NCBI GenBank assembly: GCA_044892525.1
Contig: CM097885.1
Location: forward strand, 189,720,001-189,784,000
DNA from: Schmidtea polychroa
Lineage: Eukaryota
Reading direction: 5' to 3'
Length of the DNA: 64,000 bases
Shown here piece by piece: positions 15,271 to 64,000 of this stretch. A model generated the notes under the pieces. The model ran no database searches and was not told the DNA's origin. It saw only the letters and a list, made by a program, of their open reading frames with translations. The first letter of the stretch is position 1, and the number at the start of each line of letters is the position of its first letter. The position numbers and the translations under genes are program-made.

Positions 15271-15319
15271 TGATTTTAAAATATATTACAAAGTAATTTA
15301 ATTAATATCTAATAATATA

Positions 15320-27066: not shown

Positions 27067-27086
27067 AAGGTAATAATGATGATTGT

Positions 27087-37788: not shown

Positions 37789-39290
37789 ATTTAAAATATC
37801 TGTAATTTTTGTCAGGTCTTGAAACTGTATTTTTCATAATGTGTAAACTTATATCCTATTCTCTTTTCTTCTAATAGGCTATTACATATCTACTATGATG
37901 AAACCTACAATTTACCATAATGAGTTTATCGTTTCGATAATCACTAAAATGAGACATTAGCTCATTTTTAATAAAATCAATAAAGATATTACTATTAAAT
38001 GCACCGTCTCTTATTTCATAGGAACTCATAGCAAACTTTGATGGCAACTAAACTGATATTAGTGCCTCTCTACTAGCCTTTACTAACTTGTAATACTTGC
38101 TATTGACAGGCGGAATACCCATAGTTTACACCTGTTTCATCCAAAAAATGAGATTGTCATTGTTTAAATACTTATGTAATCGAGCGTGCAATTGTTTGTT
38201 TTTAATCTTTCTAAGGGTATTTCTTTCTTCTGGAAGTTTAACGTCTTTTTCTTGTGTATTTCATAGCTTTAAATGTTCTTGAAATTATATTTTGGCTTTT
38301 GAAAATTCCTTCAGAAACTAAGATTTCTTTCGGCTGATTTTAGTGCACTTTTAATCATTTCAAGAAGTTTGTCTTTTCTTTCTCGTTTTAAAGCTATCTT
38401 CATTAGGAATACCGAAATCATCACGTCTGTCGTGAAAATTATTGTCCACTTAATACCTAAAAAATTCTTTATATTGTTGGGCTAGAACTGATTTCTAGAC
38501 CCAAAATACTAATTGTGACTGAAATGTGTAGGTACACAGCAAGTAAAAAAGCACCAAGTAAAGTTAAATATTAAAACCTACACCAAATAAACAATGGTAA
38601 TTAAACAGAGAAAACAACAAAAATAATAAACACACAAATTAAATAAAATCATACAAAAGCAAGAAGTTATGCAAAATCTAACTCAAAAATAACCAAATAA
38701 ACATAGAATTACAAAAAGCAAACTCGAATAACTTAAAATATGGTAAAAACAGTAAAAAATTCCAGAAAACCCAGAACATTCCATTAAAATGGCGATGACC
38801 ATCACAGAAGCCATAAAGGTTAGAGAAAATAAATAAATTAGTATTAAAAATAATAAATCTTAAAAAGAAATTCATAAAACACCAGTTAGAATAAAAAGTA
38901 AATTAAAAGTAATATAGAATGTTCTGGAACCGTTCCAAATCCATCATGGACGTCAAATTAACGAAAAATAATAAAAAAATAAAAGTTTAAAAATAAAAAC
39001 AAAAATTATGGCACAAAAATCGCCATTAAAAATATCAAAATCGCAAAATAGAAAATTCTGGAATAAAAAGAATTCGAGTTTGTTTTAATGCATCAATACA
39101 TACACGTGTACTAAATAGGTATATATACTGACACGTTTCAGTCAGTATTTAGTATTAATTTTATGCCAAATTTTGAACAAAATTTTTCCAACCTACATAG
39201 TAAGTAGATTTGATTGAAATTTTTTTTTATGTAGTTATGATTTACTTAAAATTACAGTATTCCATATTTGATTTTTGTTTCTAAAATTTT

Positions 39291-39627
39291 TGTTGATGTA
39301 CGAAGGTTCAACGGCGTACCGGTATTCCTGCGTCGTTGTTCAGTCCTGCATTCGATTTTGTTAATATCCTTATAGTACATGCACACATACATTATTTATA
39401 TTATACTAATCACTTATTATACGGCTCTTTTTGTGTTCGGGTCCTTCGGAGGTCGAACTACTTCATGGTCCTGCCATGGAGTTAGGTCGAGGAAAACCTC
39501 CGTCTGACTCTTTGTATTTATGTAAGGTCGACCGTAAATGGTTGACTCAACACTCAACACTAAGGTTTGTGGAAGTGGTCACAGTGGGGCCATGGAAGCA
39601 ATATTCTTCCCGACCTTTTACGTAACA
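39291..39627 (-). repeat. Possible small solo-LTR-like segment nested in the putative LTR
   Basis: Minus strand begins TGTTACG and ends CAACA; GC-richer than flanks; no clean TSD. Confidence 0.3.
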
Positions 39628-40266
39628 CATTTAAATTCAACATTTAAAATCAGCGATACAAAAAATACCCTAAGGTTGGTAAATTGAGTAGATCTCATAC
39701 CTAAAATTCAACAAATCACACTTAGTATAGACGGTTGAGTTCCTAAAAATTGACTCTGCCCATACATTGTCGAACCTAGATAAATTTTTTGAATAAAGTA
39801 AAGAATTTTCATAATGATTTAGTTCGTAACTAAGGTTCGATAGATGTATTGGCAGGGCTTGGATTTTTCATTAAATGCAACTAGCTGAATACGAATCATA
39901 TACCTTTAGAACATAGAATCCCGTCATAATCTTATGAAGTGTCGAAGAATAGTTATAGTTGGGCTTGGATAAATTCGTCGCTGAAAATGGGAATTACCAG
40001 TAGCTGTAGATAAATGCTGTTACAGAAATAGATGGAAATTTTTATGAATTATAGATAATTAGAAACATAAGTTAAAATTGCGAAAGTACTTTATACCTAA
40101 ATATATCAATTTTGATCGTAAAAGTAGGAATTCTAAATTGTCATGGGTAAAATTTGCTTACAAAACCATAAATTACAGATCGTTACATGAAAGTTTTATT
40201 AAAATATAATAATTAGATATGAATTTTTTAGCATGAACCTCAACTGCAAAGTCAAAGTTTTAAAAC

Positions 40267-40519
40267 CCAAAATTTTAAATATAAAACATAAATTTCAACT
40301 ATAAAATATAAATTAATCCAAAATTTTAAATATAAAATATAAATTTCAACTATATAATATAAATTAATCCAAAATTTTAAATATAAAGTATGAATTTCAA
40401 CTATGAAATATAAATTAAACCAAAATGTTAAATATAAAATACAAATTTCAACTATATAATATAAATTAATCCAAAATTTTAAACATAAAGTATAAATTTC
40501 AGCTATAAAATATAAATTT
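40267..40519. repeat. Minisatellite, ~5 copies of a 51-bp AT-rich unit
   Basis: ccaaaattttaaatataaaa...ttcaactat...aattaat starts at 40267, 40318, 40369, 40420, 40471. Confidence 0.85.
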
Positions 40520-41910
40520 TGGTTATGAAAGTATTAACTTCAATCTAGAATTTTTAAATTANNNNNNNNNNNNNNNNNNNNNNNNNNNNNNNNNNNNNNN
40601 NNNNNNNNNNNNNNNNNNNNNNNNNNNNNNNNNNNNNNNNNNNNNNNNNNNNNNNNNNNNNNNNNNNNNNNNNNNNNNNNNNNNNNNNNNNNNNNNNNNN
40701 NNNNNNNNNNNNNNNNNNNNNNNNNNNNNNNNNNNNNNNNAGGATCACTCTTCCTAGCGTTATTCTTATCAACCGTATGATTATCATTATTATTATTATT
40801 GCTATTATTTCATTATTAATTTCCAAAAATCGATTGAATCATCGATTTAGGATTTCCCTCCACGACTAAATTTAGAACCTACCCCTTTGCTCCAATAAAA
40901 ATGAACGTAATTCCTAAAATCTATTTTTAGTAACCCCCCCCCCCCCCCTCTCTGAGAAAATGCTAGGACTATTAATTAAATAAGAACATAAGTAGGTGCA
41001 TATATATAGCTATATGAGTAAACGTAGGTAACTATACGTATCTAATAAGTTAATTTAACTCAGGCTTATCAGAGATGGATATCTTAGTTAACTTAGCGTC
41101 CCCAGAACTAAAAGTCAAGTAAAACCTACATTAACTCAAACCAATTCATCGAGGACACTAGGAATACATTGAGACAATCGATACCAACCATGGGACTCCA
41201 CGGAATCAGCCGCACGAATTATCAATAAATGACAAAAAATTATTTTACAAAAAATCGAAGCGATTAACAAAAGAACATGCTAAATTAAATTAGTCAACAA
41301 AACTTCTAACATTACTAGATACAAATCAGACTAAAAATACTAACACAGAGTCATATAACATTCCTTTAAGGCTTTGAACAACCGGCCACTCCATCCGAGT
41401 GAAAGATTCCCATCAAATATCTCTAAAATCGAAAAGCTATGGTTAATAAATGAACTACTTACAAGCAAATCAAAGCGGACTATACCACTCACGACGAGTA
41501 CAACCGAAGGAAAGGCAAGCAGACGAGAAGCTAAGCTCGTTGTTAATACCTGTCGCCTCAGCGTACCCGAATTTAGTGGCAAACGATTTAAACCCTGAAA
41601 TTTTAAATTCGTTATAATATTTAAATTAAAATACATAAAATATAATTTAAATGTTCACTTAGTGATAAATACAAATTTAGAGAAAAATAGTTAATTAAAA
41701 CAAGAGGATTGTTGATAAATTTTTTTTTAGTTATTAGTAGACAAAATATGAAATTTCATTCTATGGTTCCTAGGATTATAAATGTTAGTCTTAAAATAAA
41801 ATATTTCTTTTTATTTTTCAAATTCTTAAAGGGAAAAAGGGTCAACAAAATCCTGTGTTTAACGTCGTATTACAATCAGTATAAAGTGGCTTGATTGTTC
41901 TTTTGTAGAA

Positions 41911-42267
41911 ATGTCCTATTCTGACAGTGGTAGTAACGAAGCAGCCGACCGACAGATGCTTACACGACTCCGGACACGGTACATATGGTACCGTATCCAT
42001 GATTGGAACCGGGGCTTGGACCTCGACAACTGGGGCCCAGTAATCAGGAGTGGGCCGGAACCGGACGCCCCAGCGTGGGTAAAAACAGAGCCCACAAACG
42101 ATTTTTTGCAAGAGGCCCGTGACCGAGCGGCCATCGAGGTGGAAGCAGCCCAGATGCGATTGAGGAAAATCGACTTGCAAATCCGGGCAAACAAGGAAGG
42201 GAAAACCGTAGAGGACCTAGAGGAGGCCGAGACAACCCCGCGGAAGAGGGGAAGGCCTCGCAAGTGA
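41911..42267 (+). CDS. 118-aa orphan ORF with coiled coil and C-terminal AT-hook
   Basis: GC-rich island; ATG preceded by ttcttttgtag and TATAAAG at about 41880; ends TPRKRGRPRK. Confidence 0.55.
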   Translation: MSYSDSGSNEAADRQMLTRLRTRYIWYRIHDWNRGLDLDNWGPVIRSGPEPDAPAWVKTEPTNDFLQEARDRAAIEVEAAQMRLRKIDLQIRANKEGKTVEDLEEAETTPRKRGRPRK

Positions 42268-42488
42268 CCGACCTGACTCATCATCAAAAAATTTTTTTTT
42301 TGCAATTAGCATCAGTTATGACTTAATTAAACTTTAATTTTAGTGACGAACAATTTTATTCCTTTCAATAAATTATCTTATGAATTGCGTGCTTAATGTC
42401 TGAGACTATGTTTATTTATAATATTGATCTTATTATATAATAGAATGAGCGTTATGCTGCAGGAATGAATCATTGAATTTTTATCTAG

Positions 42489-42919
42489 TGTTCAAACTAC
42501 TTGAAAATTTGCGAAAGGACAGGGAAGAAGCCCAAAAACAGGCCGAGGAGCTCCGCATACGAGTAGACAAGCTCAAGGGACGGTGCCGGGAACTAGAAAG
42601 CACCTGGTTTAGTCCCGAGGATATGAAAAAGAAGGTGGCGCAGGTCCTTCAACTGCAGACTCAAGCCGCGCAGGATCAGATGGAGATCCGGGCACTGAAG
42701 CTCCAGCTCCGCGCGTTAGAAACCGAGCGAAATGAACAAGTAGTTCACGGAGCCGCCATAAGCCAAATCCGGCCGTTGACTGTGGAACTAGCAGCAATAT
42801 ACCCTTCGGCCGCGAAAGAGAAACCCAAAAGAAAGCGGTTGGGACGGAACATCCGGGAGAAGTTAAAAAAGGCTAGGTTAGCCGAGTATGAGCGACAAGA
42901 AAAATCTACACCAGTGTAA
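42489..42919 (+). CDS. Coiled-coil/basic ORF, possibly a spliced exon
   Basis: GC-rich open frame (LRIRVDKLKGRCRELE...KPKRKRLGRNIREKLKK) after acceptor-like tttttatctag at 42488; first in-frame ATG is internal. Confidence 0.4.
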
Positions 42920-43326
42920 TTTCCGCGATGTGAACAGTCACTTATGCTAGATACACTGAGTTTTCCTTTTTTTTTTGTTGTTTATTGTTAATGTCTAAAT
43001 ACAAATTTAGTTAAATTAATGTATGAAGTATGTTGTTTGCAAATGTTGAGTGACTGAAAATCGAGGCGTTGAGAGTTGGGAAAACAATTTCGAATAGGGG
43101 ACCGGAGAAAATCGGACACATACCTTCTAACGGTAGTCCGTGAACCCGTGGAGTACTCGACAATTATAGTGCTTTGATGCGCTCACTTTTTGTGGGTACT
43201 CAACCCTTGGTACAGTACCAACGTTGATCACTCAACGGGTACCAAGCGGAAAAACAATGTTGTATTTTGGGTTACGCTGGTAACAGCACTCAATCATTCA
43301 ACCACCAGTAACCCACCATACAAATT

Positions 43327-43347
43327 TGGGGGCTCAGCCGGGATTTG
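43327..43347 (+). promoter_or_regulatory. Primer-binding site, tRNA-Pro
   Basis: TGGGGGCTCAGCCGGGATTTG versus the classical tRNA-Pro PBS TGGGGGCTCGTCCGGGAT(TTG): 19/21 identity. Confidence 0.85.
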
Positions 43348-44041: not shown

Positions 44042-44524
44042 ATGGAATCAACCGGCTACATTACAAAGAGACTCGAAAAATTCGTAGATTTAACACACAA
44101 TTCGTTACAACGGCTAAATCGCAAAGCGGAACAATTGGTGAAAATCCAAGACGAGATGAGCTTGAAGCCAAGACCGCAAGCTGAGGACATATGTGTAATG
44201 ATGAAAATAGCAACACCTAATGCAGAATTGACCACTAAAAGAGTCTATCAAATTCAAAATTTACGATTAGATAATGCCAAATTCAACATCAAATGGCAGG
44301 AGATAATGATGAAAATGGGAACGATCGAAGAAGAAATTAAAGAAGCAATCGAACATCAAGTTAAAAATTTTAGAAAATGCTTCATATGCAGAACCAATGA
44401 AATACGAGTAATGACGATCCCATGTGGTCATTTATGTTACTGCGAGAATTGCGCAGAGAAAATTAAACGATGCAACGTATGCGATACGAATGTTAGAGAG
44501 AAAATTGTAATATACCTCCCGTAA
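44042..44524 (+). CDS. Coiled-coil plus C-terminal C3HC4 RING (IAP/MDM2-type) ORF upstream of gag
   Basis: CFICRTNEIRVMTIPCGHLCYCENCAEKIKRCNVC followed by VIYLP* at the extreme C-terminus. Confidence 0.85.
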   Translation: MESTGYITKRLEKFVDLTHNSLQRLNRKAEQLVKIQDEMSLKPRPQAEDICVMMKIATPNAELTTKRVYQIQNLRLDNAKFNIKWQEIMMKMGTIEEEIKEAIEHQVKNFRKCFICRTNEIRVMTIPCGHLCYCENCAEKIKRCNVCDTNVREKIVIYLP

Positions 44525-45260: not shown

Positions 45261-46235
45261 TACAAAAACCCGGATACCACACCGAGTATTGGGCGCACTT
45301 TTTTTGAGTTGCTAGCGGGACTTGATACAAAAACCCGGACGGGTAGCGAGCGAGAGAGACCCAGTTACCTACACCGAGTATCAAGGAGCCCAGTGAAACG
45401 GTTGTGAGATGCGAGTCAACCGGTAAAGGACTCGTACTCAATAGGCAACCAAGATTGGACCAGTTGTGAGGCGGAAGACCGAAAGTCAACTGCATATCCA
45501 ATTTCCTTTTATCTTCACTAATCGGGAGATCTGGTTCATCACTTTTGAGAGCACGATCGAGGCGATTAGGCATTTCCATGTTTTTTGAATCCTGACAGAT
45601 AGGATGTTTTTTTTTCTTCGTGATTATTGCTAGCAGGGGTCGGTACAAAACCCGGATGCCCACACCGAGTACCGATAGGCCCAGTGAAACGGCGATGAGA
45701 TTAGAGTTACCGGTATTAGACTCTTTTCAATAAGCGGCCAAGAATTGAGCCAGTTGTGAGGCCTCAGCAGATTAGGAATTTGAGTAGGAGGAGCCTTAAA
45801 TTTTTAATTAGTCCGAAAGCCAACTGTCAACTCAATTTAATCGCGGTAGGGACGATAGTAGGTGTAAAAACCGAAGGCGTCGAGGGGTTGAAGAAACCTC
45901 ATTTAGGGCATTTGAAACCGGTCAGGGACCGAAGACCGCGAATATGGCGTAATGGTGTAAAAGCCCAGGCGTCGAGGAGTCGTAAAAGACTTCAGATTAT
46001 GATTAAACCGGCCGGAAGCCGATGCCGACGTGGAGGTCTAACAAACCAAAGCGTTGATGGGTAATAATGGATTATATGGCGTAACGGTGTAAAAGCCCAG
46101 ACGTCGAGGAGTCGTAAAAGACTTCATGAGATTAAAATGAGTTGATTAAACCGGCCAGGGAGCCGATGGTAATTGAGTGAAATGATTTAAATGAAATAGG
46201 AGAGTCGATTAAACCGGCCAGGGAGCCGATGGTAA
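45261..46235. repeat. Modular imperfect direct repeats in the long gag leader
   Basis: TACAAAA(A)CCCGGA x3 (45261, 45326, 45644); ACACCGAGTA x3; 52-bp repeat 45943-45994 / 46075-46126; GATTAAACCGGCCAGGGAGCCGATGGTAA x2 (46143, 46207). Confidence 0.8.
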
Positions 46236-47216
46236 ATAAATGTAGACGCAGAGATCGCGCGAACCAAAGCATCGATGATTAAATATGAATTTGATTAAAT
46301 CGAAATAGATTAAGTGCGTTAAATATATAATGAGTAAAGGAAAATTATGATAAAGCGCCGGCGCAAGTGAAAATTAAACCAGTTTTTGGATGGGGAAAAG
46401 CGAACGAATAGATAGTAGTTGAATTATTGAATTTTATTTATTAATGATATGTTTATTTTGATACTTATGTGATTGATGTTATATTTCTATGATAATTATA
46501 AAAGGGATAGATAATTGATACGACTATATAGATAATTGATACGAGTTATAGATAATTTAAAATCAACTTAAAATCAAAATGGGGCGAATAGCGAGAAGTG
46601 TAGAAAAGCTAGAAAATTTGAAGCGAAGGGACAGTAAAATAAAGGGAAAAAGGAAAGTAAATGAAGGGTTTAGTAAAGAGAATTTATGATATGTACTAGA
46701 GGTGTTAATTATTTTAGAACAAAGCAAACAATTCAGAAAGAAATCAAAGAAATCAAGAAAGCAATAGCAATCAAGAGATATAGAGAAATCAATTAGAAGC
46801 GAAGAATCAAAGAAATTAATAAAACCAAATCCAAGAAGAGTTAGAGAATCGTAAAGATTAAAGCGAGAAAAATACTTAGAAAACATCGAGCTCGATTGAT
46901 AAAGTAGAAAATTTATCAAAGGATATTAAAAGGAGAAAAAATTGATAGCATAGCTAACCGAACGAGGCGAAAAAGTAAAGGAAACCTCAGTTTATTGGAA
47001 AAGGAAGAGATACAAAAGGCCAAGACCAACAGAAAACTACACAGGAAGCCAGCATCAGTAGAAACAGTATTTGAATCAGACAGTTTAACAAACGAATTTG
47101 AGAACAGCGACGATCTTAAACGAACCGAACTAGATCCGATAAGTGACATTGAATCATCAGACGAGGAAGGAAATAGTTCAGAGTCAACCAATATAACAAT
47201 TTTGTGTCAAGAAATA

Positions 47217-53200: not shown

Positions 53201-55667
53201 GGATCAGAAGGTATGTCGACTAATGTTGCTCAAAACAGCAATATTCGAAGAAATCCAAGCGAAAGTATACAGTGAACCAAAAGGAGAAGCAGAAAAACGA
53301 GCGATGGAAGAGTTGAGAGCAAGGAAAGGATTCAGAGAAGACGTAATAACCTCGAAATTGGAATCGGAAGTAACACCCACAGCGATAATCTCCAAAGACG
53401 ATGGAATAGGAATGAGGTTCATAAAGAACAAAATGGTGAGTAAATGCGATGAGATGGTGATCAGCACCAATTATAAAGGGATCTACTTGTCGCGGAGAAC
53501 CCTAGCAAATGCAGTCGGAAGACTAAGCGAAAAGGATGTCAAACTATATTTATACGCTAATAATAAGATGGATTTCTTATATCACAGAGGATTAACATCC
53601 ACGGAAAAAGTCTACCATGATCTGTTAAGAAACGATTGCCTGCTCAACAAAGAAATACTGAGAACCAAATTAGCAATGGCGATTACAAATCCAGATAACG
53701 CAATTCCGCTACTACCATTACAGGAAGGATATTTCGGACGAATCGTGGGTGAAGTGATGTACACCTACCAATGCAAAAAGATAATGGCAAGATTGCCAGA
53801 AAACCCTACAATACCAAGAGATAAGTGTGCAAACGAACTCGAAATTATTCACGAAGGTAAACCCAGGTTTGTGCAAGCAGTCACTAGGGTAATGAACCCG
53901 GTAGGGTTTCAACCAAACCTGTTTAATTGTAGTAATGCATATGGACCAATGTATGAAAAAGAAGATGGACAATGGGTTCAATTCCCAAGTAAAACAATCG
54001 TAGTAACACCCAAGAAATTTGGATTGACGGAACTAACAACAGAACTAGAGTTCAAGCCGATAGACGTATCCCAGAGTGGATTATATACACCAAAAGATCT
54101 CGAATCAGCAAGAGCCCACCTGTTATTCCCAGCGCAAAGACAAGCAATCTTATCAAATATAGTGACTATTTCTGGAGGAAATAATTATGGGGAGAGCCCG
54201 AACTACGAGCTATTATTATCACCAAGTCACTACCAACAAGCAACAGCAAACATGATGAAGGCTATGTGGGGTAGATTTTTAGTATTTGGCCAAATGATGG
54301 CAGGAATACTCGGAATTATTCTGATAATACAAATAGTTAGAGTGATACTAACTCAGATGCTAGCATGTTTTGACATCTATAAGCGCGAGAGAAAAGTAAA
54401 TTGGAAACTTGCAATTGGATTCTTACCGTTCTTAGCGAAAACAATGGTGTTACATGGACACTCAAAGGATATTCATCGAATAAAAAGATTGTTGAAAATA
54501 TTAACGCAAATGAAAGGGACAGACGAAGAAGTCGGACGTAAGTTCAAAGTGATAATGAGATTAGAAGCAGAAAGAACTCAAGAGAAAGCGAAAGGAACCG
54601 GGAAGTGGAAAAAGTGGATGAATCTCAGACGAGACGATGATAGTGATGACAATGATGATTTCGACGACGACGATAATAATCAAGGAGGGGTAACGTTGAT
54701 AAACAAAAATACAGCCACTTGGGAAAACGAAAAAATGAAACCATGGGGATCACCATATTTACAGGCACCAACTAATGGACCAATGCGACGACCAGGAACA
54801 ATGAGAGAACGGGTAAGAATGGGAACCGGGAGATTACCCGTACCAAATATTTACCCAACGGCGTATGAACCAAATTGGGCAGCAATGGACCCAACAATGA
54901 TCAAGCCAATTAAAAATGTGGGGCAAGAGGTGGAGACACGAACGATTGCGGTATTGCAGACACCAGCAGGACCATCGTTAACTATCACGGTCGAAGTAAA
55001 CGGAATAGAGATGGATGCAATGATTGATACCGGAGCAAATATCTCAGCAATAAATATGAATATGCTACCAGGAAGACTATGGCCATGCATTGAGGAGACA
55101 ACCATGGATGTAATAACATGCAGCAAACAATCCATAGCGGTAGTAGGAAGAGTATGGTCAACGATCGAATACAAAGGGGTTAAAGTTACAACGTACCTCG
55201 CAGTCATCAGACAGCTAAGCGTATCATGTATAATTGGAACAGATGTAATGCCGGAATTATTGAAAGAAATTGTGATTGATTTGAGTTCCATGAAATTAAA
55301 AGATAAAACTGGACAGATATGCACAATGAGAACAGAAGTGAGATGCTCCGAAAAAATGATAATACCAGCACGTACCCAGACAATATGTTATGTCAAGGTC
55401 GATAACGAAGCCAAAGGAGATATGATATTTGAACCAAGTCAAAAATTCGAGAAGAGAAGGGAGCTGCCATTGGCAAGAGAAATTGTCAGTATAAATGAGG
55501 ATAACGAGATACCCATCAACATCACCAATTTTGATGAGGAAGATAAAGTAATCTACGAAAACGAGAGACTTGGAAAACTCACACCAATGATGAACATTGA
55601 GCTGCCGGAGATAAAAAGCGAGGGAGCAGACGAAAAAGAATTATGGACCATCGATAGCGAACTCTAA
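47217..55667 (+). CDS. gag: Giant polyprotein part 1: Gag (3 CCHC), 2 ubiquitin-like, MATH, Bcl-2-like, fusion glycoprotein, aspartic protease
   Basis: First ATG 47217 (track start 46995 is TTG); FDGNINQLETF gag; knuckles 48012-48197; MATH 50427-50873; YILEQGGWRNF at 52401-52433; YDC/HCGxxSH glycoprotein 52548-54450; MIDTGANIS at about 55026. Confidence 0.92.
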   Translation: MTDGIPNVTGLTDPPETSNVHVNIGEFREKFRGEPFDGNINQLETFIKEFEVYITICHWPDIVVRERIPLYLKGSAQDVYLEAKCDATKLRTWKEIKEFLIKTFGTEKEGNRKMLDFLHRKQKYNESNALYACELRRLAREAFDSNQPVPEDKIIAVFVDGMKREDIRATLGCRAPETLEEALKIANKCETYLTPIQVAAMTAAPAAPAATATTTNNQVNNANPVMNQFIPGSQQLFKTPQTRNQDNGGNIQNFTNNFRNNDNRTCNICQRSGHWSNECYRARMCQKCGRRGHTENICRVPTMSTGRGGTRTCYNCNQPGHMVRECTMRAKPNQPGSNNPIQNTKINLMQEIEQLKDMIQRIPVNNQQQRINMMQSTEEIRKQPSKQQQDQQRIEWQRLQNEEAREIQERWKQREANPGRINMMRLTNKEESHTAEQCVNNEGSDLIKTTKENEIDPQTKLSSEEKIQLIKEFTKEEKERRQKKDESQDESKSNEIVTKNRIQRVLLQKIEDRIKNENPTLTKEQIKEKVKEHWFRKNEWFEKKEPHTKAKINMLRQMRSDQTDQEDEKSEVSSLGGELFQSSEENNEPKTPPNSETPQSSDRSENDDMKSMIEKDDEEIFEEIFDTVTEIERNESYINELTYRKCVKLITQVYQCEGGIITAAWKDLATRYKEKLKEAGPDQYQVSIQHPEIQIQTIELKGTNTDELYNWVQEKMGTSHKNKQLYVDGYKVKRGIHLVDAMIWPNETNILTLEKTRDDESVAEMFQKIQQVFNNEVEPELEKIERKIMKENQIILVKQAIDQARKYINRLRERWPQLMKQFVKDVRDTEIMRFEDERATELISKYGEYERTKCERETIKIKVKLPNEEKQIIEVDPDCQVDELVQIIDQEIIQKARENSEDGMIEDVIIMYNRHMLERGDRTVIYELGIWEDGAVINIIAMDEPSGGHKNATKTEQQIKRFQWGMRVKMDRIIDIYNHWLKDDKLKVAAFNDEDCKLIPWKKVWIEREARWDWEQQKLEPNWIDNIPEEIAAVWVREKPIDAYQDILPQEFQNELQSGEDEEIREPVRLAPFTWKIENWMEKIKSAREEKITRLVSPPFYSGLGEYKMKLRIYPNGDGVGKGSYVSAFFIICKGNYDDKVPGPFSRKVTIAIEPLKDSLNIHKETMKPDPRSTCYQRPTTSENTASGTSKLIRLNYIENEQSIFVKDNAIQIRVEVETEQEMNQRLNIPENQPRICMMRRRVPDSGYLPIDADADEEEAATLLEAQKCKELMEILQNGAKNRRRAVVELPKWIAESCKRIQNLRKIVKAIEEYRRVYVWYPEQFGEIIRKWKQQEWAENLPEKYQLKIFLPDFEPMEKEFYSTAKVREVKKRIPYELPFHLQHEGRSLDDDIEIGVTPLQGEIVNRLTVSKITGRELRRREIKQKSSTQQPGSLDTPEVPNAVSEVTIETTGEDEILDELQEIVETGEIMRASQSGDLFIDEGEPTTDDLDGFVCAQRQPVETTEAETDLDKVGGSANKDVTTTDEWSNWRVDPGATTSKDTTYNPPKRKETGTAMDRRTRGRPKTDKAEVEPKSKMQAQMEQVKTKMDKLSALVKQVKVKTNVREQGTRWINDLLANMLALANPDVKRVMRKDNIPTEAKQLWAVLKPIIMKIMDNKIRLTLKDPVELRLIVEHLLSRSEDQNRYLVGLAYLVYNVIGQYKKRMPKYNATGYEFTVTEIIKQSIEPYILEQGGWRNFIESTGKKDQTEMMQAKLRDLLTEFEGTINMNDPRASRKGINAIITTILIWMMCIKGTESFAVYDCDNIKIHEKYSLKDTEDCKAANPRKLQTVMASVSYNVYQEADFIKTMVQECTVTRKIFAHHCGSSSHSTIIEPGLESTVILLSREECEEGFRSGRIHLRQGIEIAAEPGKIKTTRVYTAGRITKGDGTCETGTYTLNGQLVSGVVVIESYEAKLERYQGYFDPDTQAMKKYPSCLASDRSCSTGMSTLVYHADQKVCRLMLLKTAIFEEIQAKVYSEPKGEAEKRAMEELRARKGFREDVITSKLESEVTPTAIISKDDGIGMRFIKNKMVSKCDEMVISTNYKGIYLSRRTLANAVGRLSEKDVKLYLYANNKMDFLYHRGLTSTEKVYHDLLRNDCLLNKEILRTKLAMAITNPDNAIPLLPLQEGYFGRIVGEVMYTYQCKKIMARLPENPTIPRDKCANELEIIHEGKPRFVQAVTRVMNPVGFQPNLFNCSNAYGPMYEKEDGQWVQFPSKTIVVTPKKFGLTELTTELEFKPIDVSQSGLYTPKDLESARAHLLFPAQRQAILSNIVTISGGNNYGESPNYELLLSPSHYQQATANMMKAMWGRFLVFGQMMAGILGIILIIQIVRVILTQMLACFDIYKRERKVNWKLAIGFLPFLAKTMVLHGHSKDIHRIKRLLKILTQMKGTDEEVGRKFKVIMRLEAERTQEKAKGTGKWKKWMNLRRDDDSDDNDDFDDDDNNQGGVTLINKNTATWENEKMKPWGSPYLQAPTNGPMRRPGTMRERVRMGTGRLPVPNIYPTAYEPNWAAMDPTMIKPIKNVGQEVETRTIAVLQTPAGPSLTITVEVNGIEMDAMIDTGANISAINMNMLPGRLWPCIEETTMDVITCSKQSIAVVGRVWSTIEYKGVKVTTYLAVIRQLSVSCIIGTDVMPELLKEIVIDLSSMKLKDKTGQICTMRTEVRCSEKMIIPARTQTICYVKVDNEAKGDMIFEPSQKFEKRRELPLAREIVSINEDNEIPINITNFDEEDKVIYENERLGKLTPMMNIELPEIKSEGADEKELWTIDSEL

Positions 55668-58600
55668 ATGAAGATGAAAAGGAACAACTCAGACAACTAC
55701 TGATTGAGTTTAAAGATATTTTTGCGGCTTCAGATTTGGATCTGGGTACTAGCGATGTAACTCAACACATTATACCATTAACAGATGAGACACCCATAAC
55801 CTTGAGACCATATCGATTGGCTGAAGCACAAAAAACGGTAGCAGAGGAAGAAGTACAAAAGATGTTAGATGCTGGTGTAATAGAACCTAGTTGCTCACCA
55901 TGGCAATTCCCAGTAGTAATGGTCAAAAAGAAAGATGGCACACAGAGATTTTGTATTGACTATCGGAGGTTGAATGCAGTAACTAAAAGGGATACGTACC
56001 CACTGCCAGACATAAACGAAATGTTACAGATGTTGCATGGAGCAGCATACTTTACATCTTTAGATCTAAAGAGTGGATACTGGCAAATTAAAGTTAAAGA
56101 GGAAGATAGAGAAAAGACAGCCTTTACCATCGGAAAAGATTTATATCAGTTTAAAAAGATGCCATTTGGATTAACAAACGCACCTGCTTCGTTTCAGAGA
56201 TGTATGAACTTTGTGACACACGGGATCAAACAATGTATGGTGTATATTGATGATCTGTTAATTTATTCAGGTACTTTCGAGCAACACTTAATCGACATCA
56301 GAAACATATTCATAAGACTGAAACAATGGAAGCTGAAGTTGAAACCGTCAAAATGCGATTGGGCAAAGGAGAGAGTCACATTTTTAGGACACATTGTGTC
56401 GGCAAAAGGAAAAGAACCAGATCCGAGAAACGTTGAGAAAATAAAGAATTGTCCGATACCAAAAACCGTGACTCAGGTGCAAGAATTTCTGGGATTATGC
56501 GGTTACTACCGCAAGTTCATCAAAAATTATGCAACTATCGCAAAACCAATTCAGGAACTAACAAAAAAGGATACTCCATTTCTGTGGGAAAGGGAACAGC
56601 AAATAGCGTTCGAATCGCTAAGAGATAAATTAATAGCCTCGCCTATCTTAATCCACCCAGATTTCAAAAAGCCTTTTTTATTAGCAACTGATGCAAGTGG
56701 ATACGCATCAGGAGCTGTGCTAGGACAATGGGATGAGGAGAAAAGAGAAAGAGTCATCGGATATTATAGCAAGACGTTCAAAAAGCACGAAAAGAATTAC
56801 TCAGTCACAGAAAGAGAAGCTTTAGCAATAATTCAGGCGATAAAACATTTCAAATATTTATTATGGGGGCACGAGATAATTATTACTACGGATCACCAAC
56901 CTCTAGTTTGGTTGGGCCAACATAAAGAAGCATCTAGCCGATTAATGAGATGGGCAATGCAATTACAGGAATATTCCCCATATATCAAGTTCAAGTCAGG
57001 AAAAGCAAACGCAAATGCAGATTGCATGTCGAGATTCGTATTTGAAGAACTCATGGATCATGACGTCAGGCGAATATGCATGATAATCGCGGAAGATATC
57101 GATTTTACCAATCTAAGGAACGAACAAAAGGAAGACAGCGAATTGAAACTAATAATCGAATTCCTGGATAAAAACGATATGAAAATATTCAACAACGAGG
57201 ATCGATTGAAAGAACATATGGAGAAAAATCGTCACAGATATACAATCGAGAAAGAATGGCTATTGGTAATGGATGGCGACAAACGACTGATGTGTCTACC
57301 AGAAAGTAGACGGAAAGAAATTATGATTCAATACCACGACGGTAAATTGGGCGGACATATGTCAGCCAAGAAAACAGAAGCAAGGCTCAAACAGAAATAT
57401 TACTGGCCAAATATGAGCGATGACGTGAAAGAATGGATTAAGAACTGCTTGATATGCGCAACCAGAAAAACAACGGGCAGTAAACTAAAGCCGCCATTGA
57501 AACCAATGCCGATACCGCCAGAACCGATGACAATGATTGCAATGGATGTAGTTGGACCACTACCAGAGACTAACAGTGGAAATGTGTATATATTGGTAAT
57601 AACTGATTATCTGACTAAGTTCCCTGAAGCATTTGCGATGCCAGACCAAAAAGCACGAACGGTTGCAAGGATATTAGTGGAAGAGATCTGCTGCAGATAT
57701 GGAACACCAAAACAAATCTTAACTGACCAAGGAACTAATTTCATGAGCGAGATAATAAATGAAGTGACAAATTATTTTAGAATTGCCAAATTGAGAACCT
57801 CACCATACCACCCGCAAACGAATGGTCAGACAGAAAGATTTAACGGCATACTAATAGACATGATGTCCAATTACGTGAGTAAACATCAAAAGGACTGGGA
57901 TGAATATATTAAGTTGTGTCTAATGGCTTATCGAATGTCAATACACTCAGCAACGAAAATGAGTCCGTTTAAACTCATGTATGGAAGGGAATGCAACATG
58001 CCGATGGATCTCGAATACCAACCGCCAATCTCACAATATATGGAAATAGATGATTATGTGACCAAGTTCAAGGAGAGAATGCAAGAAATATGGAAAACCG
58101 CAGGGATGAACATCCGATTCAACCAAGAGAGTTATAAGGAATTACATGATAAAAAGAAGAACGTGCAAAACCATCAATTTAAAGTCGGAGATTGGGTTAT
58201 TATAGAAACACCCGAATTAATCCCAGGAACAGCAAAGAAATTACAACGTAATGGCAGAGGGCCATATGAAATCATCCATGTAAACGAGAACAACGCTAGA
58301 GTGAAGTTGGTTAACAATCCACTAATTAGACCCATTTATGTGAATACATGTCGATGCAAAGCAGTAGCGAAAACTGCCACTAAAGACCCAGAAACAAGGA
58401 GGATAATTACGAGATCACAAACAAATGCCACAACGGAACCAGAAGTAAGCGGTAGATTAACTAGATCACAGACAAGACGGATATTCATGTTGAGAGGAGA
58501 AACAAGCAGCAGCGCCCATAAAGGAACTGAAGCAGAAAGCGAAGCTGACGCAATGGCAAGGAGCCAAGCAACATGGAATATGACAGTAAAAATAGCACGA

Positions 58601-61243
58601 GAAATTGTACCAGAATGGGCCGATATAACCAATAAATACCAAGTATTGGGCAAACTAATGTTAGTAGCAGAAAGATATGCGAAAGGACGAAGATATGCCG
58701 AAGGATTACAAATACCGACTCAAATATATGAACTAATCCGGAGATTACCAATCATGTTCCTAACAAGTGATTTGAGTAATAACTGGCCAATCCATCATGC
58801 AGTGAAAGCAGGACAAGAAAAACGAGCTTTAGAGATTATACGAATAATGGAAAACTGCAAACAATCAACAAACGTCAAAAACAGTAAAGGAAAAACTCCA
58901 CTGATGAAAGCCATAGCAATAGGCGCATCAAGAGATGTACTCAGAGAATTATTAAGAACGGGATCCACGTTGAAAGAAAAAGACAACAAACAACGAACCG
59001 TATTACGTTATGCCGTCAGGTCAAAAAGACCTAGTATAGTGAACTTTATCACAGGAAATGCAACAACCGAAGAAGCCGAGGTGTTGGGACAGAGCATTGA
59101 ACCAATTCTGGAAGCCATCAGAGGAAACTTAGACAGAACCGCAGCAATGTTAATCAAATGGAAACAAAACGAATTAAGAGCGGAAGTAATTGATATAAAT
59201 CAATTCCAAAACAACGAAAATATCGTACTAAGAAGCGCCATATACTCAAGACCACCAATGCCAAAAACCATTAAAGCAATATTACAAAGAAATAGAGCAG
59301 AATTGACAGGTAATTGGTGGAAATGCACAAAAGCACATACGATGAAAAAGCAACTAGAAATACTAGTGTGGGAATGGCACCGAAAACAACGGAAATATCA
59401 AGGAACCAAAGAAGAACGAGAAAGTATCCACAATGATAAAAAAGAGATAATTAAAAAATACGAAGAGATGATCAAAGCGACAAATGTCGAGGACGACATT
59501 TTTGGGAAAACCCCGGGTGAGAGGAATGACGACGATGACGACGACGAAAGGATGGGGGATAACGATAACAACCCAGAGGAAAACGACAGAGAACAAAATC
59601 CGGAGGGCGGAGAAACAACGGATGATGATGAGGAGTTGGAAGAAGACGAAGATGACCAATGTCGAGGTGAAGATCAAGGATTCGACAAAACAGAAAACAA
59701 AAAACGAAAGTCCCCACTACATAGCATAGTGTTTCGAAATCAAATCCAGCCAATCCTACTACAAAGAATATTTATAATATTAACATCTATCTGCTTAACG
59801 GAAACAAAAAATATGAGAATCGTAAGAGAAGCTTTCCAAGAAGGCGAAGTATTTATGATAAAAGTCAGTGATTACGACGGTAACGCCGTCGGAATATGTG
59901 TGCAACTAATGGAAGGAACAGGAGTAAGTTGTGATTTCAGATCGATAACAAAAGGAAAGATCTTTAGTAGCCAAAAAAGAGACCCCAGGCTATGCGGAGA
60001 TTATGACATCTGTAGGGACATAACAACAGAGGAAATGGAACTAGAAAGAGCCAATGAAACCGGAGTACATTTTCAACTTAACATTCTGGAAGAAGGTATC
60101 GAAATAGAGGATAAAGGGAGTCGATCAATTACACATGTATGCATCAGAGAAGACAGAGATATATGCATAGTAACTGATATGACACAGGATCACAAATTCT
60201 TCTGGGGAGAGGTCAAACCAAATACCCCTACTGTGGTATGCGCAGGAACACAAGGGATAGTAGTGTGTAAAGGAACAAGAACTGCACCAAGAAAAGACAA
60301 ACCAAGGAGTATGGCAATTAAACAAGGTCCATTGACGGAGAAAACAACCAAGAAGCCCAAGAAATCAGTTAGTACAAAAACAACAACAGAGCTAAATCGA
60401 AGCGAATTAATAACAACAACAACATGGATTAACGAAGTAATTAAAGACGAAAGACGGGAAGTGCAGATAACTATTAACCTCAACAAGAAAGGTGAAGAGG
60501 TAATTACAGTCAAAAACCAAGAAGGAGAACCAATCATAAGGATATGTGTAATGGATAAGACGGGAATAATCGACTGTACAACAACACCGATAGACAAAGG
60601 TACAGACGTTAAAATGGAGACAGGGAAACGGAAAGAACGATACCAAGTATGTATCCTTAAGAAAGGAAGAGGAGCCAGCGTATGTCAACCAATAACTCGA
60701 CAAAAACCCCAATTAATAAACATACCGTGGATACCCCGAGATCAGGAAGGGGGAGAGAAACGGGAAAATCACAGTCACCTAACAGAAAAAGAGAAGGAAC
60801 GATTACATCAAGCATTCAAGAAAATCAAAGCACCAGAAACAAACACCACAGGTAGTACAATATTAACGACAGTAAAAACAAATAATGGAACAACGATAAT
60901 CACAAAGATGATATGGATAACTAGCGCGATAGTAAGCACGATAATAGCGTTAGCAATGATTCAGTGGATAAGAACCACCAAAAGATGTAAACAAAAACCG
61001 GGAAACCGAAGAAAATGGCCCAAAGTGGAAAAATTTGAATACGGTATTCCAACCGAGAATCTGAATCTAGAAGAATACGAGGTGGTAGAGGACCCCGGAT
61101 CCAGTGGATTGTGGATGTCGGAACTACCAAGAATACCCACACCCAACGAATGGACACACGAAGTCGATATATACCGATTAACGGACGAAAGATATGGGGG
61201 GATGCGCACGTTGCATTCCGGCCCCATGGCGACACTGGTATAA
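55658..61243 (+). CDS. pol: Giant polyprotein part 2: RT, RNase H, integrase, ankyrin repeats, acidic tract, signal peptide/ectodomain/TM
   Basis: Frame open from 55658; YIDD 56243-56254; LATDASG; HDGKLGGH...CLIC; MDVVGP, TDQG, NGQTER; ANK GKTPLMKAI 58778-59160; TM MIWITSAIVSTIIALAMIQWI about 60907-60970. Confidence 0.92.
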   Translation, partial: RTLNEDEKEQLRQLLIEFKDIFAASDLDLGTSDVTQHIIPLTDETPITLRPYRLAEAQKTVAEEEVQKMLDAGVIEPSCSPWQFPVVMVKKKDGTQRFCIDYRRLNAVTKRDTYPLPDINEMLQMLHGAAYFTSLDLKSGYWQIKVKEEDREKTAFTIGKDLYQFKKMPFGLTNAPASFQRCMNFVTHGIKQCMVYIDDLLIYSGTFEQHLIDIRNIFIRLKQWKLKLKPSKCDWAKERVTFLGHIVSAKGKEPDPRNVEKIKNCPIPKTVTQVQEFLGLCGYYRKFIKNYATIAKPIQELTKKDTPFLWEREQQIAFESLRDKLIASPILIHPDFKKPFLLATDASGYASGAVLGQWDEEKRERVIGYYSKTFKKHEKNYSVTEREALAIIQAIKHFKYLLWGHEIIITTDHQPLVWLGQHKEASSRLMRWAMQLQEYSPYIKFKSGKANANADCMSRFVFEELMDHDVRRICMIIAEDIDFTNLRNEQKEDSELKLIIEFLDKNDMKIFNNEDRLKEHMEKNRHRYTIEKEWLLVMDGDKRLMCLPESRRKEIMIQYHDGKLGGHMSAKKTEARLKQKYYWPNMSDDVKEWIKNCLICATRKTTGSKLKPPLKPMPIPPEPMTMIAMDVVGPLPETNSGNVYILVITDYLTKFPEAFAMPDQKARTVARILVEEICCRYGTPKQILTDQGTNFMSEIINEVTNYFRIAKLRTSPYHPQTNGQTERFNGILIDMMSNYVSKHQKDWDEYIKLCLMAYRMSIHSATKMSPFKLMYGRECNMPMDLEYQPPISQYMEIDDYVTKFKERMQEIWKTAGMNIRFNQESYKELHDKKKNVQNHQFKVGDWVIIETPELIPGTAKKLQRNGRGPYEIIHVNENNARVKLVNNPLIRPIYVNTCRCKAVAKTATKDPETRRIITRSQTNATTEPEVSGRLTRSQTRRIFMLRGETSSSAHKGTEAESEADAMARSQATWNMTVKIAREIVPEWADITNKYQVLGKLMLVAERYAKGRRYAEGLQIPTQIYELIRRLPIMFLTSDLSNNWPIHHAVKAGQEKRALEIIRIMENCKQSTNVKNSKGKTPLMKAIAIGASRDVLRELLRTGSTLKEKDNKQRTVLRYAVRSKRPSIVNFITGNATTEEAEVLGQSIEPILEAIRGNLDRTAAMLIKWKQNELRAEVIDINQFQNNENIVLRSAIYSRPPMPKTIKAILQRNRAELTGNWWKCTKAHTMKKQLEILVWEWHRKQRKYQGTKEERESIHNDKKEIIKKYEEMIKATNVEDDIFGKTPGERNDDDDDDERMGDNDNNPEENDREQNPEGGETTDDDEELEEDEDDQCRGEDQGFDKTENKKRKSPLHSIVFRNQIQPILLQRIFIILTSICLTETKNMRIVREAFQEGEVFMIKVSDYDGNAVGICVQLMEGTGVSCDFRSITKGKIFSSQKRDPRLCGDYDICRDITTEEMELERANETGVHFQLNILEEGIEIEDKGSRSITHVCIREDRDICIVTDMTQDHKFFWGEVKPNTPTVVCAGTQGIVVCKGTRTAPRKDKPRSMAIKQGPLTEKTTKKPKKSVSTKTTTELNRSELITTTTWINEVIKDERREVQITINLNKKGEEVITVKNQEGEPIIRICVMDKTGIIDCTTTPIDKGTDVKMETGKRKERYQVCILKKGRGASVCQPITRQKPQLINIPWIPRDQEGGEKRENHSHLTEKEKERLHQAFKKIKAPETNTTGSTILTTVKTNNGTTIITKMIWITSAIVSTIIALAMIQWIRTTKRCKQKPGNRRKWPKVEKFEYGIPTENLNLEEYEVVEDPGSSGLWMSELPRIPTPNEWTHEVDIYRLTDERYGGMRTLHSGPMATLV

Positions 61244-61389: not shown

Positions 61390-61819
61390 ATGAACCAGAG
61401 AAACGAAGAGCAGGAACACCCAAATGGGATACCACATGTTGTTGAAGTAAGAGAACAGCCGCTTATGAATGTACATCCAGTAGACATGATGGAAATGAAC
61501 GTGCCAAACCAGCCGAGTCAGCCAACAGGATCCATGTGGAGGGCACAGTGTGAATTAATGACCCAATTGACAAATCAGACTCAAGAGCACTGGGTACGAA
61601 ACCAAACGGCGTTGATAGAGAGTATTAATAGAAATACAACACCAAATAATCGCGCAACTGGAATATAATAACAATCAGTTAATAAGCCAAATCAGATGGC
61701 AAGCGGAAGAAATTAGAAGGTTGCATGAAAATCGACAACATGATGAGATTGCCAGTTTAGTCGAGTGGATGACCGGACTGCCAGGAACTGAAGAACCGGA
61801 CTCGACGGTAGATGTATAG
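61390..61819 (+). CDS. Orphan ~142-aa ORF with probable +1 frameshift near 61617
   Basis: Track ORF 61390-61668; the +1 frame is open 61619-61819 (RVLIEIQHQIIAQLEY...DSTVDV*) and ends at the same post-stop motif as neighbouring genes. Confidence 0.5.
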
Positions 61820-61908
61820 GAGAGAAAGGAGTGAAATGTAAATAATCCTGTAAATAAATAGAGTTATAATCAAGTAGAAATCCCAAGATTAAAAATCATC
61901 ATTGTAGA

Positions 61909-63332
61909 ATGCAAAACAAAGCGGAAGAGAACCGGAGAGAAGCAGAGGAACAAAAGATTAACTATGAATTGATGAGAAAATATCAAGCCAAGCCGGACGA
62001 GTTCGAAGAGAGGCTATTATGTGCCGATGCAGCATGTAGAAGACTACTGATTGGAGCAAGTCAAACTCGATGCGGGTGTAGATTATGCCGAGGGTGTGAT
62101 ATAAGATTAGCCAAGCTAAAGAGAGAAACTTGTCCAGGATGTGGAGAAGCATTTAAGTTGGTTCCCACTGGTACAATACCGGATAGAGCAATGAACCGAG
62201 AAATCAGAGAAGTGAAAATAAGATGCACCCAAAGGTCATGCGAATGGACAGGTCGAGTAAAGGAGTTAAGAGCCCATACAGACGTATGCGAATATTTAGA
62301 ATTGGAATGCGAAGCATGCACGGTAAAGTTTTTACGAAAAGAGAAAACCAAACATAAAGGGGAATGCGAAGCGCGAACGGAAAAATGCGAATTTTGCGGA
62401 GAAACTGCTAATTGGAGAGAAATCGAAATGGAACATCGAAACGCAGTAGAAAGACGGATTTGCGACGAATATACAGGGAGATGCCCAAACGAGTGTGGAG
62501 AAATTAACAACGTCAGTTAAATGAACATTGGGAGATATGCACGAGAAAAGCAATAAAATACCCAATGGTGACATTCGACTGTAGAGCACAATTACCAGCA
62601 GAAGAAATGAAGAAGCATGTGGAGGAGAACACATTCGAACACATGCAAAAGATGATGAGAGCAATAGAGTTAACAGCAAGAGCAATTGAAGACGTCAAAG
62701 ACGAACTCAAATCACATAAAATCATGATAAAAGAAATGCTGAGCTCACAGGAAAGCTTCGAAAATACGAGAGAAGCCGTAACACAAAGGATGTTGAAATT
62801 AGACGACAAATTAGTCGAAGTAACTAAATTACAAACCAAATGGACTACAAAGGAACTGACAACAGAGGAACTACCAATACTACCATACATGTGGAAAATC
62901 CAAGGAATAACGGAAATAATGGAGCGAGCAAAGCAAGGAATCCAGACAACGATAGTGAGCAAACCATTCTACGCCAAGAAACATGGATACAAGATGAAAT
63001 TGAGATGGTTTCCAAATGGAGAGGGAAAGTTTAAAGATCGGTGCGTGTCCATATATATGCAAATTTGTAAAGGAGATTTTGACGACCTAATAGCATGGCC
63101 ATTCCGACATAGATTAAAAATATCTCTCTTAGGATCAAAAAAGACACATATAATGTGCTGTCGAGCATCCAGTCCAGCATGGAATAAACCGATTACAGAG
63201 GTTAATCCTGCGGTAGGAGTAGCAGAGTTTATGCAGCTATACCAATTTAATGAAGGGTCCTACATAGAAAAGGATACTATATTCTTCCTAATCGAACTAG
63301 ACGAGGAAGGACCAACAATAGAAATACGATAG
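61909..63332 (+). CDS. Intronless full-length TRAF-like protein (RING, TRAF zinc fingers, coiled coil, MATH), split by a 1-nt frameshift near 62506
   Basis: C-x4-C-x11-CGC-x2-C-x2-C...CPGC; CPNECGEI continues in the -1 frame as QRQLNEHWEIC...MKKHVEEN; MATH WKIQG...FYAKKHGYKMKLRWFPNG...KGDFDDLIAWPF; ~474 aa if repaired. Confidence 0.88.
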
Positions 63333-63472
63333 ACGGATAGAGGGGAACTGTAAATATTTTGTAAAAACGATGTAAAGTAAATATAAAGTTATTGTATACA
63401 GTAAAGTAACTTGCCAAAACCATAAAAATTAGAAAAAGAAAATGTAAAAAGAAATGATGAAATTTATTATAG

Positions 63473-64000
63473 ATGATTAATCAAGAGAGACCGAATATCC
63501 GAAAGAAAACGATCACAATGAGAGAGGAAGAGGACAATATGTCACCTAGAGAAAGAGTGAAGGATGCGGAAGTCAGCAAAACAAAACCAAGTAGTTACAC
63601 ATATTATCGAAGAATGGGAAACGATTATAATTTGGTACATGAAAATTTGAAACTGGGAGATAATGAACAATTCAGATGTGAGAAGCAGAGATATCTGTCA
63701 TTTGAACATCAGACCATTTTCACCAAGGAACAGAGCCGAGCGCTAGCACGCGACGGTATTTTCTTCTCCGGAAAACCAGAGATACCCGATCAAGTAACGT
63801 GTCGTTTCTGTAAAGGGAAATTAGCAGAATGGAAAAAAGGAGAACACCCAAAGGAGGAACATCGTAGACGATTTCCAACTTGTCTATTCGTACTGGGATT
63901 TGATGTACACAACAAACCGGAAATCAAATACGAAGCCTTGGAGAAATTGAAAACTGAAGACGAAAAAGGAGGGAAAATGAGCATCGCGATAACCAGAATC
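63473..64000 (+). CDS. BIR-domain (IAP-like) protein, 3'-truncated by the window; absent from the ORF track
   Basis: 176 open codons; EKQRYLSF...LARDGIFFSG...DQVTCRFCKGKLAEWKKGEHPKEEHRRRFPTC = CX2CX16HX6C BIR at about 63680-63892. Confidence 0.9.
   Translation, partial: MINQERPNIRKKTITMREEEDNMSPRERVKDAEVSKTKPSSYTYYRRMGNDYNLVHENLKLGDNEQFRCEKQRYLSFEHQTIFTKEQSRALARDGIFFSGKPEIPDQVTCRFCKGKLAEWKKGEHPKEEHRRRFPTCLFVLGFDVHNKPEIKYEALEKLKTEDEKGGKMSIAITRI

Follow-up and report, generated by a model that had tools for sequence, protein, structure and literature searches.

Does the right-hand part of a 64,000-nucleotide stretch of the Schmidtea polychroa genome (contig CM097885.1, positions 189,720,001 to 189,784,000, forward strand; hereafter the window) carry a single giant retrotransposon organised like a complex virus, and if so, how might its many genes be expressed? 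The original prediction for this locus proposed a giant long terminal repeat (LTR) retrotransposon of more than 25 kb with a multi-kb LTR, resembling the Burro elements of Schmidtea mediterranea. Both claims are borne out. The layout is that of a Ty3/gypsy element with LTRs, env and accessory genes; the element measures 35,090 bp with an internal region of 25,343 bp, reaches 9.6 kb beyond the window, and has the size and domain set of Burro. It is almost certainly a Burro-type element, here as a recently inserted and now crippled copy of an active family. The best overall explanation, which we hold to be probable, is that such a copy combines spliced accessory genes, two surface proteins threaded into the endoplasmic reticulum (ER) and a survival module.

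Boundaries and copies of the giant element

The genome of origin is AT-rich and comprises 781 Mb. A left-edge search gave 40 scored matches of 2,933 candidates, and since the other 39 all start within 7 nt of the position equivalent to the TG at 38475, the start of the LTR is fixed there, 52 nt to the left of the predicted start at 38527. The partner 3′ LTR was located in the adjoining 19 kb, at the window equivalent of 68662-73564 (G000:C1:189788662-189793564), with the same termini (TGTTGGG...CCCACCA) as the 5′ LTR, and the two differ by eight substitutions in 4,660 compared columns (99.8% alike). A 4-bp target-site duplication (TSD) encloses the pair. The primer-binding site is separated from the 5′ LTR by 8 nt (43319-43326). 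The genes for the same tRNA-Pro(TGG) that primes the element form a tandem array with a 475-bp period at G000:C1 130.90-130.95 Mb (locus L074), and its motif has 1,580 matches in the genome. The 3′ LTR and the TSD were thus found as expected. A polypurine tract was not: none lies within 420 nt upstream of the 3′ LTR, the best candidate having 9/12 purines about 290 nt away, and this counts against the overall explanation. The 8-nt gap and the tract-less 3′ end are both identical in other copies, and as the latter is common to all copies seen, plus-strand synthesis is likely to use some other primer. Rfam gave no match over 38000-64000, and no tRNA gene was found within the window.

Five further full insertions, each examined in a separate 10-kb stretch, agree with it in gene order. 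All five have a 4-bp TSD of their own, and their LTR pairs are only 0.02-0.22% apart; a sixth, more diverged full copy keeps the order and lacks the RING-finger open reading frame (ORF) described below. The predicted polyprotein of about 14 kb holds for the family, with a single open frame of 4,773-4,812 codons in 48 of the 111 scored copies, but not for the window copy, in which it is divided into two frames of 2,919 and 1,861 aa. This copy carries three private frameshifts, near 55.66, 61.66 and 62.51 kb. A programmed frameshift between protease and reverse transcriptase was ruled out, as 28 of 30 loci are open there, and the break is a lesion of the window copy. Separate genes at 61870 and 62508 were likewise rejected; there is one TRAF gene, open at about 62.51 kb in 26 of 30 loci. 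At all 30 TRAF loci the gene is flanked by the end of pol upstream and by the IAP gene downstream, which makes the accessory genes part of the element.

A chimeric assembly, or host genes that by chance adjoin an ordinary gypsy element, would give a similar picture at a single site, and the three frameshifts in so young a copy could in part be assembly errors. Such an origin is nevertheless practically dismissed. The identical layout recurs at five other sites with distinct TSDs, the pol-TRAF-IAP order is kept at all 30 TRAF loci, and the accessory genes carry the codon bias of the element, with A in the third position of 43-49% of codons, like the polyprotein, as compared to 19% in a host exon. 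These shared A-rich codons of the internal accessory genes also suggest a long residence. Neither a missing 3′ LTR nor accessory genes at host loci free of the element, the two outcomes that the original prediction named as refuting it, was observed.

A polyprotein with two probable membrane segments

The first part of the polyprotein encodes gag with three CCHC zinc knuckles (motif count), a coiled-coil-like stretch, a weak ubiquitin-like region, MATH, a weak BCL2-like region, env and the protease (PR); the second encodes reverse transcriptase (RT), RNase H, integrase (IN), ankyrin repeats and a second membrane cassette. The order PR-RT-RNase H-IN is thereby present, and Pfam matches cover the zinc knuckles, MATH, a Monjiviricetes fusion glycoprotein, protease, RT, RNase H, integrase and ankyrins. 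Ratios of nonsynonymous to synonymous substitution rates (dN/dS) against the diverged full copy, the comparison used hereafter unless stated, are 0.01-0.03 for PR, RT and IN (RT 0.02, IN 0.01). The motif [RK]-I-[NC]-M-M occurs seven times in part 1 compared to a mean of 0.4 in shuffled sequences, a pattern fitted after inspection of the sequence, which makes the shuffle control generous. The 103 codons before the first gag methionine (46908-47216) are open in all copies seen, with a dN/dS of 0.14 and no ATG start. A Met-Gly upstream ORF was considered as a spliced gag start and dropped, because the diverged copy does not preserve its start region intact. Short direct repeats of 41-58 nt and an imperfect duplication of about 290 nt lie at 45359-46242, in the 2.4-kb leader that separates the RING ORF from gag.

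The env segment is framed by an internal hydrophobic signal (aa ~1882-1900) and a transmembrane anchor (aa ~2463-2481). Its structural model, built from an 88-row alignment, has a predicted local distance difference test (pLDDT) score of 89. It matches PDB structures of herpesvirus gB (E 1e-14, template-modelling score about 0.35-0.4) as well as glycoproteins of chu-like viruses (E 2e-40); one named sequence match is the Tacheng tick virus 4 glycoprotein. Since the model matches both groups, env is, on this modelled fold, a class III (gB/chuvirus-like) fusogen between signal and anchor.

The second cassette follows integrase and the ankyrins and consists of a hydrophobic signal (aa ~1363-1381), an ectodomain of about 370 aa with cysteines and a Thr-rich stalk, and a transmembrane segment (aa ~1751-1769) followed by basic residues. 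Such a signal-transmembrane pair after integrase was found in 18 of 20 testable clade relatives, whereas none of the 27 other gypsy polyproteins whose tail measures at least 300 aa has one; rows without a usable tail, 3 of 23 in the clade and 75 of 102 among the controls, were left out. The ectodomain has a dN/dS of 0.11-0.24. The second ectodomains that were compared share no or barely any sequence likeness, and in one relative the hydrophobic segment behind integrase is directly followed by a Pfam Ig domain. The model of the ectodomain is confident for residues 220-305, of low confidence elsewhere, and this confident part is a beta-sandwich of Ig-like type, its best Z of 8.4 being at a generic level. 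A search of a viral fold library gave nothing at E <=0.001 with this ectodomain, and an Atlas search no usable match. The cassette may mark a conserved place in the polyprotein at which surface proteins are exchanged, possibly for use in attachment. That two segments of the polyprotein are threaded into the ER is quite probable, a point against being that the hydrophobic segments derive from a simple hydropathy scan and not from a signal-peptide predictor.

In a tree of RT-RNase H (38 rows, midpoint root) the element falls within a clade of 24 rows (support 95/87) on a long branch; its partners are 19 env-bearing and four probably partial metagenomic polyproteins. The rows are gypsy-type database proteins without named reference elements, and P0253 was left out as too short. 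One relative has a Bcl-2 match (E 1e-3) directly before env. Six metagenomic relatives (P0152, P0236, P0240, P0244, P0262 and P0277) have two to six aspartic-protease-like repeats per polyprotein, some of them after integrase.

Whether env still serves entry is, in our judgement, evenly balanced. The element could instead be a purely intracellular retrotransposon that uses env and the second surface protein for budding or for manipulation of the host cell, a somewhat less probable reading. It is consistent with a single N-glycosylation sequon in the env ectodomain and with the accessible part of PMC13524379, which calls env-based transmission unresolved for most such elements. The strong constraint on env argues against it (dN/dS 0.08-0.15 against the diverged copy; a ratio of 0.03 among near copies), as do the confident class III fold of the model and the retention of env across the 24-row clade.

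Table 1. Features of the giant element in window coordinates.
Feature	Position	Strand	Details
Left target-site duplication	38471..38474	+	ATAT (4 bp), repeated after the 3′ LTR at window-equivalent 73565-73568
5′ LTR	38475..43318	+	4,844 nt, TGTTGGG...CCCACCA
51-bp tandem repeat within LTR	40267..40518	+	Period 51 bp
Conserved LTR island with candidate 5′ splice donor AAG/GCAAG	41484..41520	+	Intron would begin at 41515; inferred
LTR ORF A	41911..42267	+	118 aa, C-terminal RGRP motif; YAG 2 nt before ATG
LTR ORF B	42489..42919	+	Coiled-coil-like, basic tail; conserved from YAG onward
Primer-binding site	43327..43347	+	21/21 nt complementary to the 3′ end of host tRNA-Pro(TGG) with CCA
RING-finger ORF before gag	44042..44524	+	160 aa, Pfam zf-C3HC4_3 E 5e-12
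Polyprotein part 1	46908..55667	+	2,919 codons, first Met at 47217
MATH/TRAF-C domain in polyprotein	50433..50867	+	Pfam E 3e-26
env	52551..54350	+	Pfam PF24664 E 1e-68
Aspartic protease, DTG motif	54984..55259	+	Pfam and motif
Copy-specific frameshift dividing the polyprotein	55640..55670	+	28/30 loci open across it
Polyprotein part 2	55658..61243	+	1,861 codons: RT, RNase H, integrase, ankyrin repeats, second membrane cassette
Second membrane-protein cassette	59744..60964	+	Hydropathy, comparison with relatives, model
151-aa accessory ORF	61390..61845	+	Frameshifted near 61.66 kb in window copy; dN/dS 0.18
TRAF-like gene	61909..63332	+	RING-zinc fingers-coiled coil-MATH; frameshifted near 62.51 kb in window copy
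IAP gene	63473..64000, on to window-equivalent 64651	+	392 aa, BIR part in window

Accessory genes and their candidate splicing

The ORF expected before gag turned out to encode a RING finger; it is found in five of the six other full copies, deleted in one, and has a nonsynonymous to synonymous ratio (pN/pS) of 0.25 among near copies. The prediction of at least three genes after integrase likewise held, as six are present: the 151-aa ORF, TRAF, IAP, two coiled-coil-like ORFs and an ORF with signal peptide and transmembrane segment, the last three (532, 255 and 328 aa) lying past the window and the signal-bearing one being that of 328 aa. In most other copies the TRAF protein has 474 aa; it matches human TRAF structures (E 1e-19) and has a dN/dS of 0.03-0.22. 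The IAP has one clear BIR and a C-terminal RING, with a dN/dS of 0.06-0.14 over most of its length. Word-indexed homolog searches gave one match for IAP (a snail IAP) and none for TRAF. For the first coiled-coil ORF dN/dS is 0.12, and for the signal-bearing ORF 0.31.

Two further ORFs are encoded by the LTR itself, both open in all 10 LTRs of five near copies. ORF A is 71-75% identical across diverged LTR subfamilies (dN/dS 0.15-0.20) and gave no Pfam match and no usable Atlas match; its terminal RGRP motif is AT-hook-like. ORF B has an amino acid identity of 90-93% and a dN/dS of 0.05-0.07 at a dS of 0.63-0.84 among diverged LTRs.

How might so many genes be read from one element? A TAG, of the pyrimidine-AG (YAG) type of a splice acceptor, stands 0-3 nt before seven of the eight accessory ATGs, compared to 17 of the element's 159 non-coding ATGs (binomial P 1e-6), and the four cases that are out of frame give P 0.001 on their own. 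The candidate donor at 41515 reads AAG/GC in the subfamily of the window and AAG/GT in a diverged LTR subfamily. Between LTR subfamilies the acceptors of ORFs A and B mostly switch between TAG and CAG while their T-rich tracts change; among the solo or 3′ LTRs seen, the YAG is lost before ORF B in two and before ORF A in one. Taken together, these patterns incline us to the view that the accessory genes are made by splicing to acceptors just before their ATGs.

Several results weigh against this view. Three of the seven accessory YAGs double as in-frame stop codons, and two sequence patterns for integrated spliced copies, searched in the genome, gave no match each. In the runs X1, X3, X4 and X7, no GT..AG joint was seen among the 15 listed of 81; these runs are contigs of uncertain RNA origin and are uninformative here. 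An ATG is missing where ORF B meets its acceptor, and the donor supplies no start, so that an upstream exon or an internal start is needed. A separate observation concerns an LTR at locus L130 (G000:C3:72570323-72580322), from which the stretch equal to window 41563-42488 is missing. This deletion reaches as far as the acceptor of ORF B, fails to coincide with a GT-AG intron by one base and shows 3 nt of microhomology; as evidence of intron loss it was set aside as ambiguous.

The in-frame stops, the missing RNA joint and the L130 deletion with its one-base offset and microhomology speak for a reading without any splicing, the YAGs being stop codons or chance and the genes being read from internal promoters or by reinitiation. 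This is unlikely, given the four out-of-frame YAGs and acceptors that differ only as TAG or CAG while the T-rich tracts around them change. Another possibility, of similarly low probability, is that the accessory cistrons are resolved in an operon-like manner by spliced-leader (SL) trans-splicing rather than by cis-splicing from the LTR donor. The flatworm SL RNA leader ends in AUG, and such a leader would not match the reading frame of ORF B; a GT or GC donor is, in addition, kept in the island common to the LTR subfamilies. Trans-splicing also predicts acceptors immediately before the ATGs, fits the outcome of the pattern search, in which no genomic copy joined the candidate donor to an ATG, and occurs in flatworms according to the accessible part of PMC12582326.

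With cis-splicing from the LTR as the preferred reading, the following course of events is proposed. The full-length RNA from the 5′ LTR would yield one polyprotein of about 4,700 residues, whose internal hydrophobic signals would thread the class III fusogen and the second, Ig-like surface protein into the ER, where signal peptidase would free the N-termini of both segments. Gag, PR, RT and IN would remain in the cytosol, cleaved by the element protease at the recurring I-N/C-M-M-like sites. Subgenomic RNAs, spliced to acceptors 0-3 nt before the ATGs, with the LTR donor as the likeliest source in the manner of complex retroviruses, would yield ORF A, the RING, 151-aa, TRAF and IAP proteins and the coiled-coil ORFs. 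The env proteins would permit spread from cell to cell, while IAP, TRAF, RING, MATH and the weak BCL2-like domain would dampen both apoptosis and ubiquitin signalling and in this way keep carrier stem cells alive. An anti-apoptotic role of the accessory genes is regarded as reasonably probable. This overall explanation is weakened by several points: the BCL2-like (Bcl-xL E 0.3) and ubiquitin-like matches (UBX-like, E 7e-4, below the cut-off) are weak, domain searches of the element proteins gave no dUTPase, and the second coiled-coil ORF is barely constrained (0.58-0.69 against the diverged copy, 1.6 on few changes among near copies). The near-copy constraint values, moreover, compare four near copies of one subfamily, which are not independent.

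Insertion site and known relatives

The element has inserted between two copies of the 3′ end of a host Serinc gene, as about 1 kb with the last Serinc exon (window 33129-34144) is repeated at 96.6% identity just past the 3′ LTR. Serinc exons lie at window 16085-16879, 18084-18437 and 33497-33817 (and at L012 1369-2363), and between them, at 25659-30492, stands a 4.8-kb gypsy element with identical 245-bp LTRs, a 5-bp TSD (AACTC) and gag, PR-RT and RNase H-IN in three overlapping frames. Left of the insertion is a decayed remnant of a hAT-like transposase (36012-37450; DUF4371, E 0.005). Further left the window contains degraded pieces of RT/RNase H from a different LTR element on the minus strand (13517-14401), a near-perfect 84-nt palindrome with a 12-nt loop (4007-4186) and a 344-codon ORF of a host EF-hand protein (1028-2062). 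A 580-bp element (15317-15897) has 34-nt inverted ends beginning TACTCCCTCCGTCC, which we take to be like those of Stowaway miniature inverted-repeat transposable elements.

The domain architecture of the giant element is largely in print already, and it is not a new kind of element. The accessible part of PMC6431247 (section 7) credits Burro1-4/GYPSM1 of S. mediterranea to Jurka 2007 and Grohme 2018 and describes elements of more than 30 kb with an internal region of up to 25 kb and a 4,873-aa ORF, whose domains are gag with three knuckles, Smc, MATH, ubiquitin-like, BCL2-like, PR-dUTPase-RT-RH-IN, ankyrin and BIR, with an env, likened to gypsy Env, in frame between gag and pol. In common with this account are the size, an internal region of about 25 kb, a polyprotein of about 4.8 thousand residues (4,773-4,812 codons as compared to 4,873 aa), three CCHC knuckles, MATH, the in-frame env between gag and protease, the ankyrins and a BIR gene. 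Differences are the class III fold of env and, as far as that section goes, a full-length TRAF, the second membrane cassette, the LTR ORFs and splicing, none of which it describes. Giant Burro elements are also mentioned in the accessible part of PMC11410931.

Gene order and env type are further shared with the HSV/gB-type GAG-ENV-POL errantiviruses of Platyhelminthes (Chary & Hayashi 2026, PMC13524379, as far as accessible), to which six S. mediterranea elements are assigned; the features of this group, a class III ectodomain between two hydrophobic segments, the order gag-env-pol and many near-identical copies, are present here. In the supplement of that work the closest element is Smed_errantivirus_6, with 112 of 157 env columns identical (about 70%, counted by eye). 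It is a single-copy element (>18 kb) with no primer-binding site assigned, whereas in the window family at least 111 copies were scored and the tRNA-Pro site is clear, and Smed_errantivirus_6 is only 33% identical to Smed_1 and Smed_2, of 45 and 215 copies. Our guess is that one of these two is Burro1. The window family is probably a sister family of Burro1, Burro being compared here by its description and not by a consensus sequence. The word "accessory" is absent from the accessible main text of PMC13524379. For Burro1, a BIR-RING protein (B-IAP, Lee et al. 2026, as cited in the accessible part of PMC13465017) is reported to protect stem cells; a BIR and RING gene is also found in the window family, the function being reported for Burro1 only. 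BURRO1 transcripts are under PIWI control according to the accessible part of PMC8532177.

If the expression outlined above is correct, the element is similar in its working to complex retroviruses, through its leader donor, acceptors, accessory genes and LTR ORFs. Complex retroviruses such as human immunodeficiency virus, the foamy viruses and mouse mammary tumour virus, the latter with an LTR-encoded gene, join one leader donor to many acceptors and carry accessory genes. The element differs from them in its Ty3/gypsy-type pol, its class III env in frame inside the polyprotein and its size of 35 kb. In place of the separate class I env after pol found in Retroviridae, env is of class III and lies before the protease; the element is not a member of that family, though it may work like a complex retrovirus.

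No description of the second cassette, the LTR ORFs or the accessory splicing was found in the accessible literature, and Grohme 2018 and Lee 2026 may already cover them. A more far-reaching and doubtful proposal is that Burro-type elements and their metagenomic relatives are complex enveloped endogenous viruses with two-protein entry, multi-acceptor LTR splicing and LTR proteins that the numerous solo LTRs might still express in host cells. Entry would then use a conserved class III fusogen together with an Ig-like attachment protein that can be exchanged, both released from the polyprotein via internal signal peptides, while one LTR donor would be spliced to at least eight accessory genes, including the TRAF-IAP survival module and two LTR-encoded proteins.

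What is gained is a gene map, open to testing, of a family that continues to multiply, as the small distances within its LTR pairs indicate. Should both the splice map and the second surface protein be borne out, a Ty3/gypsy lineage would have independently evolved an expression in the style of complex retroviruses and an entry by fusion plus attachment. The constrained ORFs in the 4.8-kb LTRs would, if so, let even solo LTRs supply proteins to planarian stem cells, and proteins supplied in this way would bear on the reported mutualism between host and transposon.

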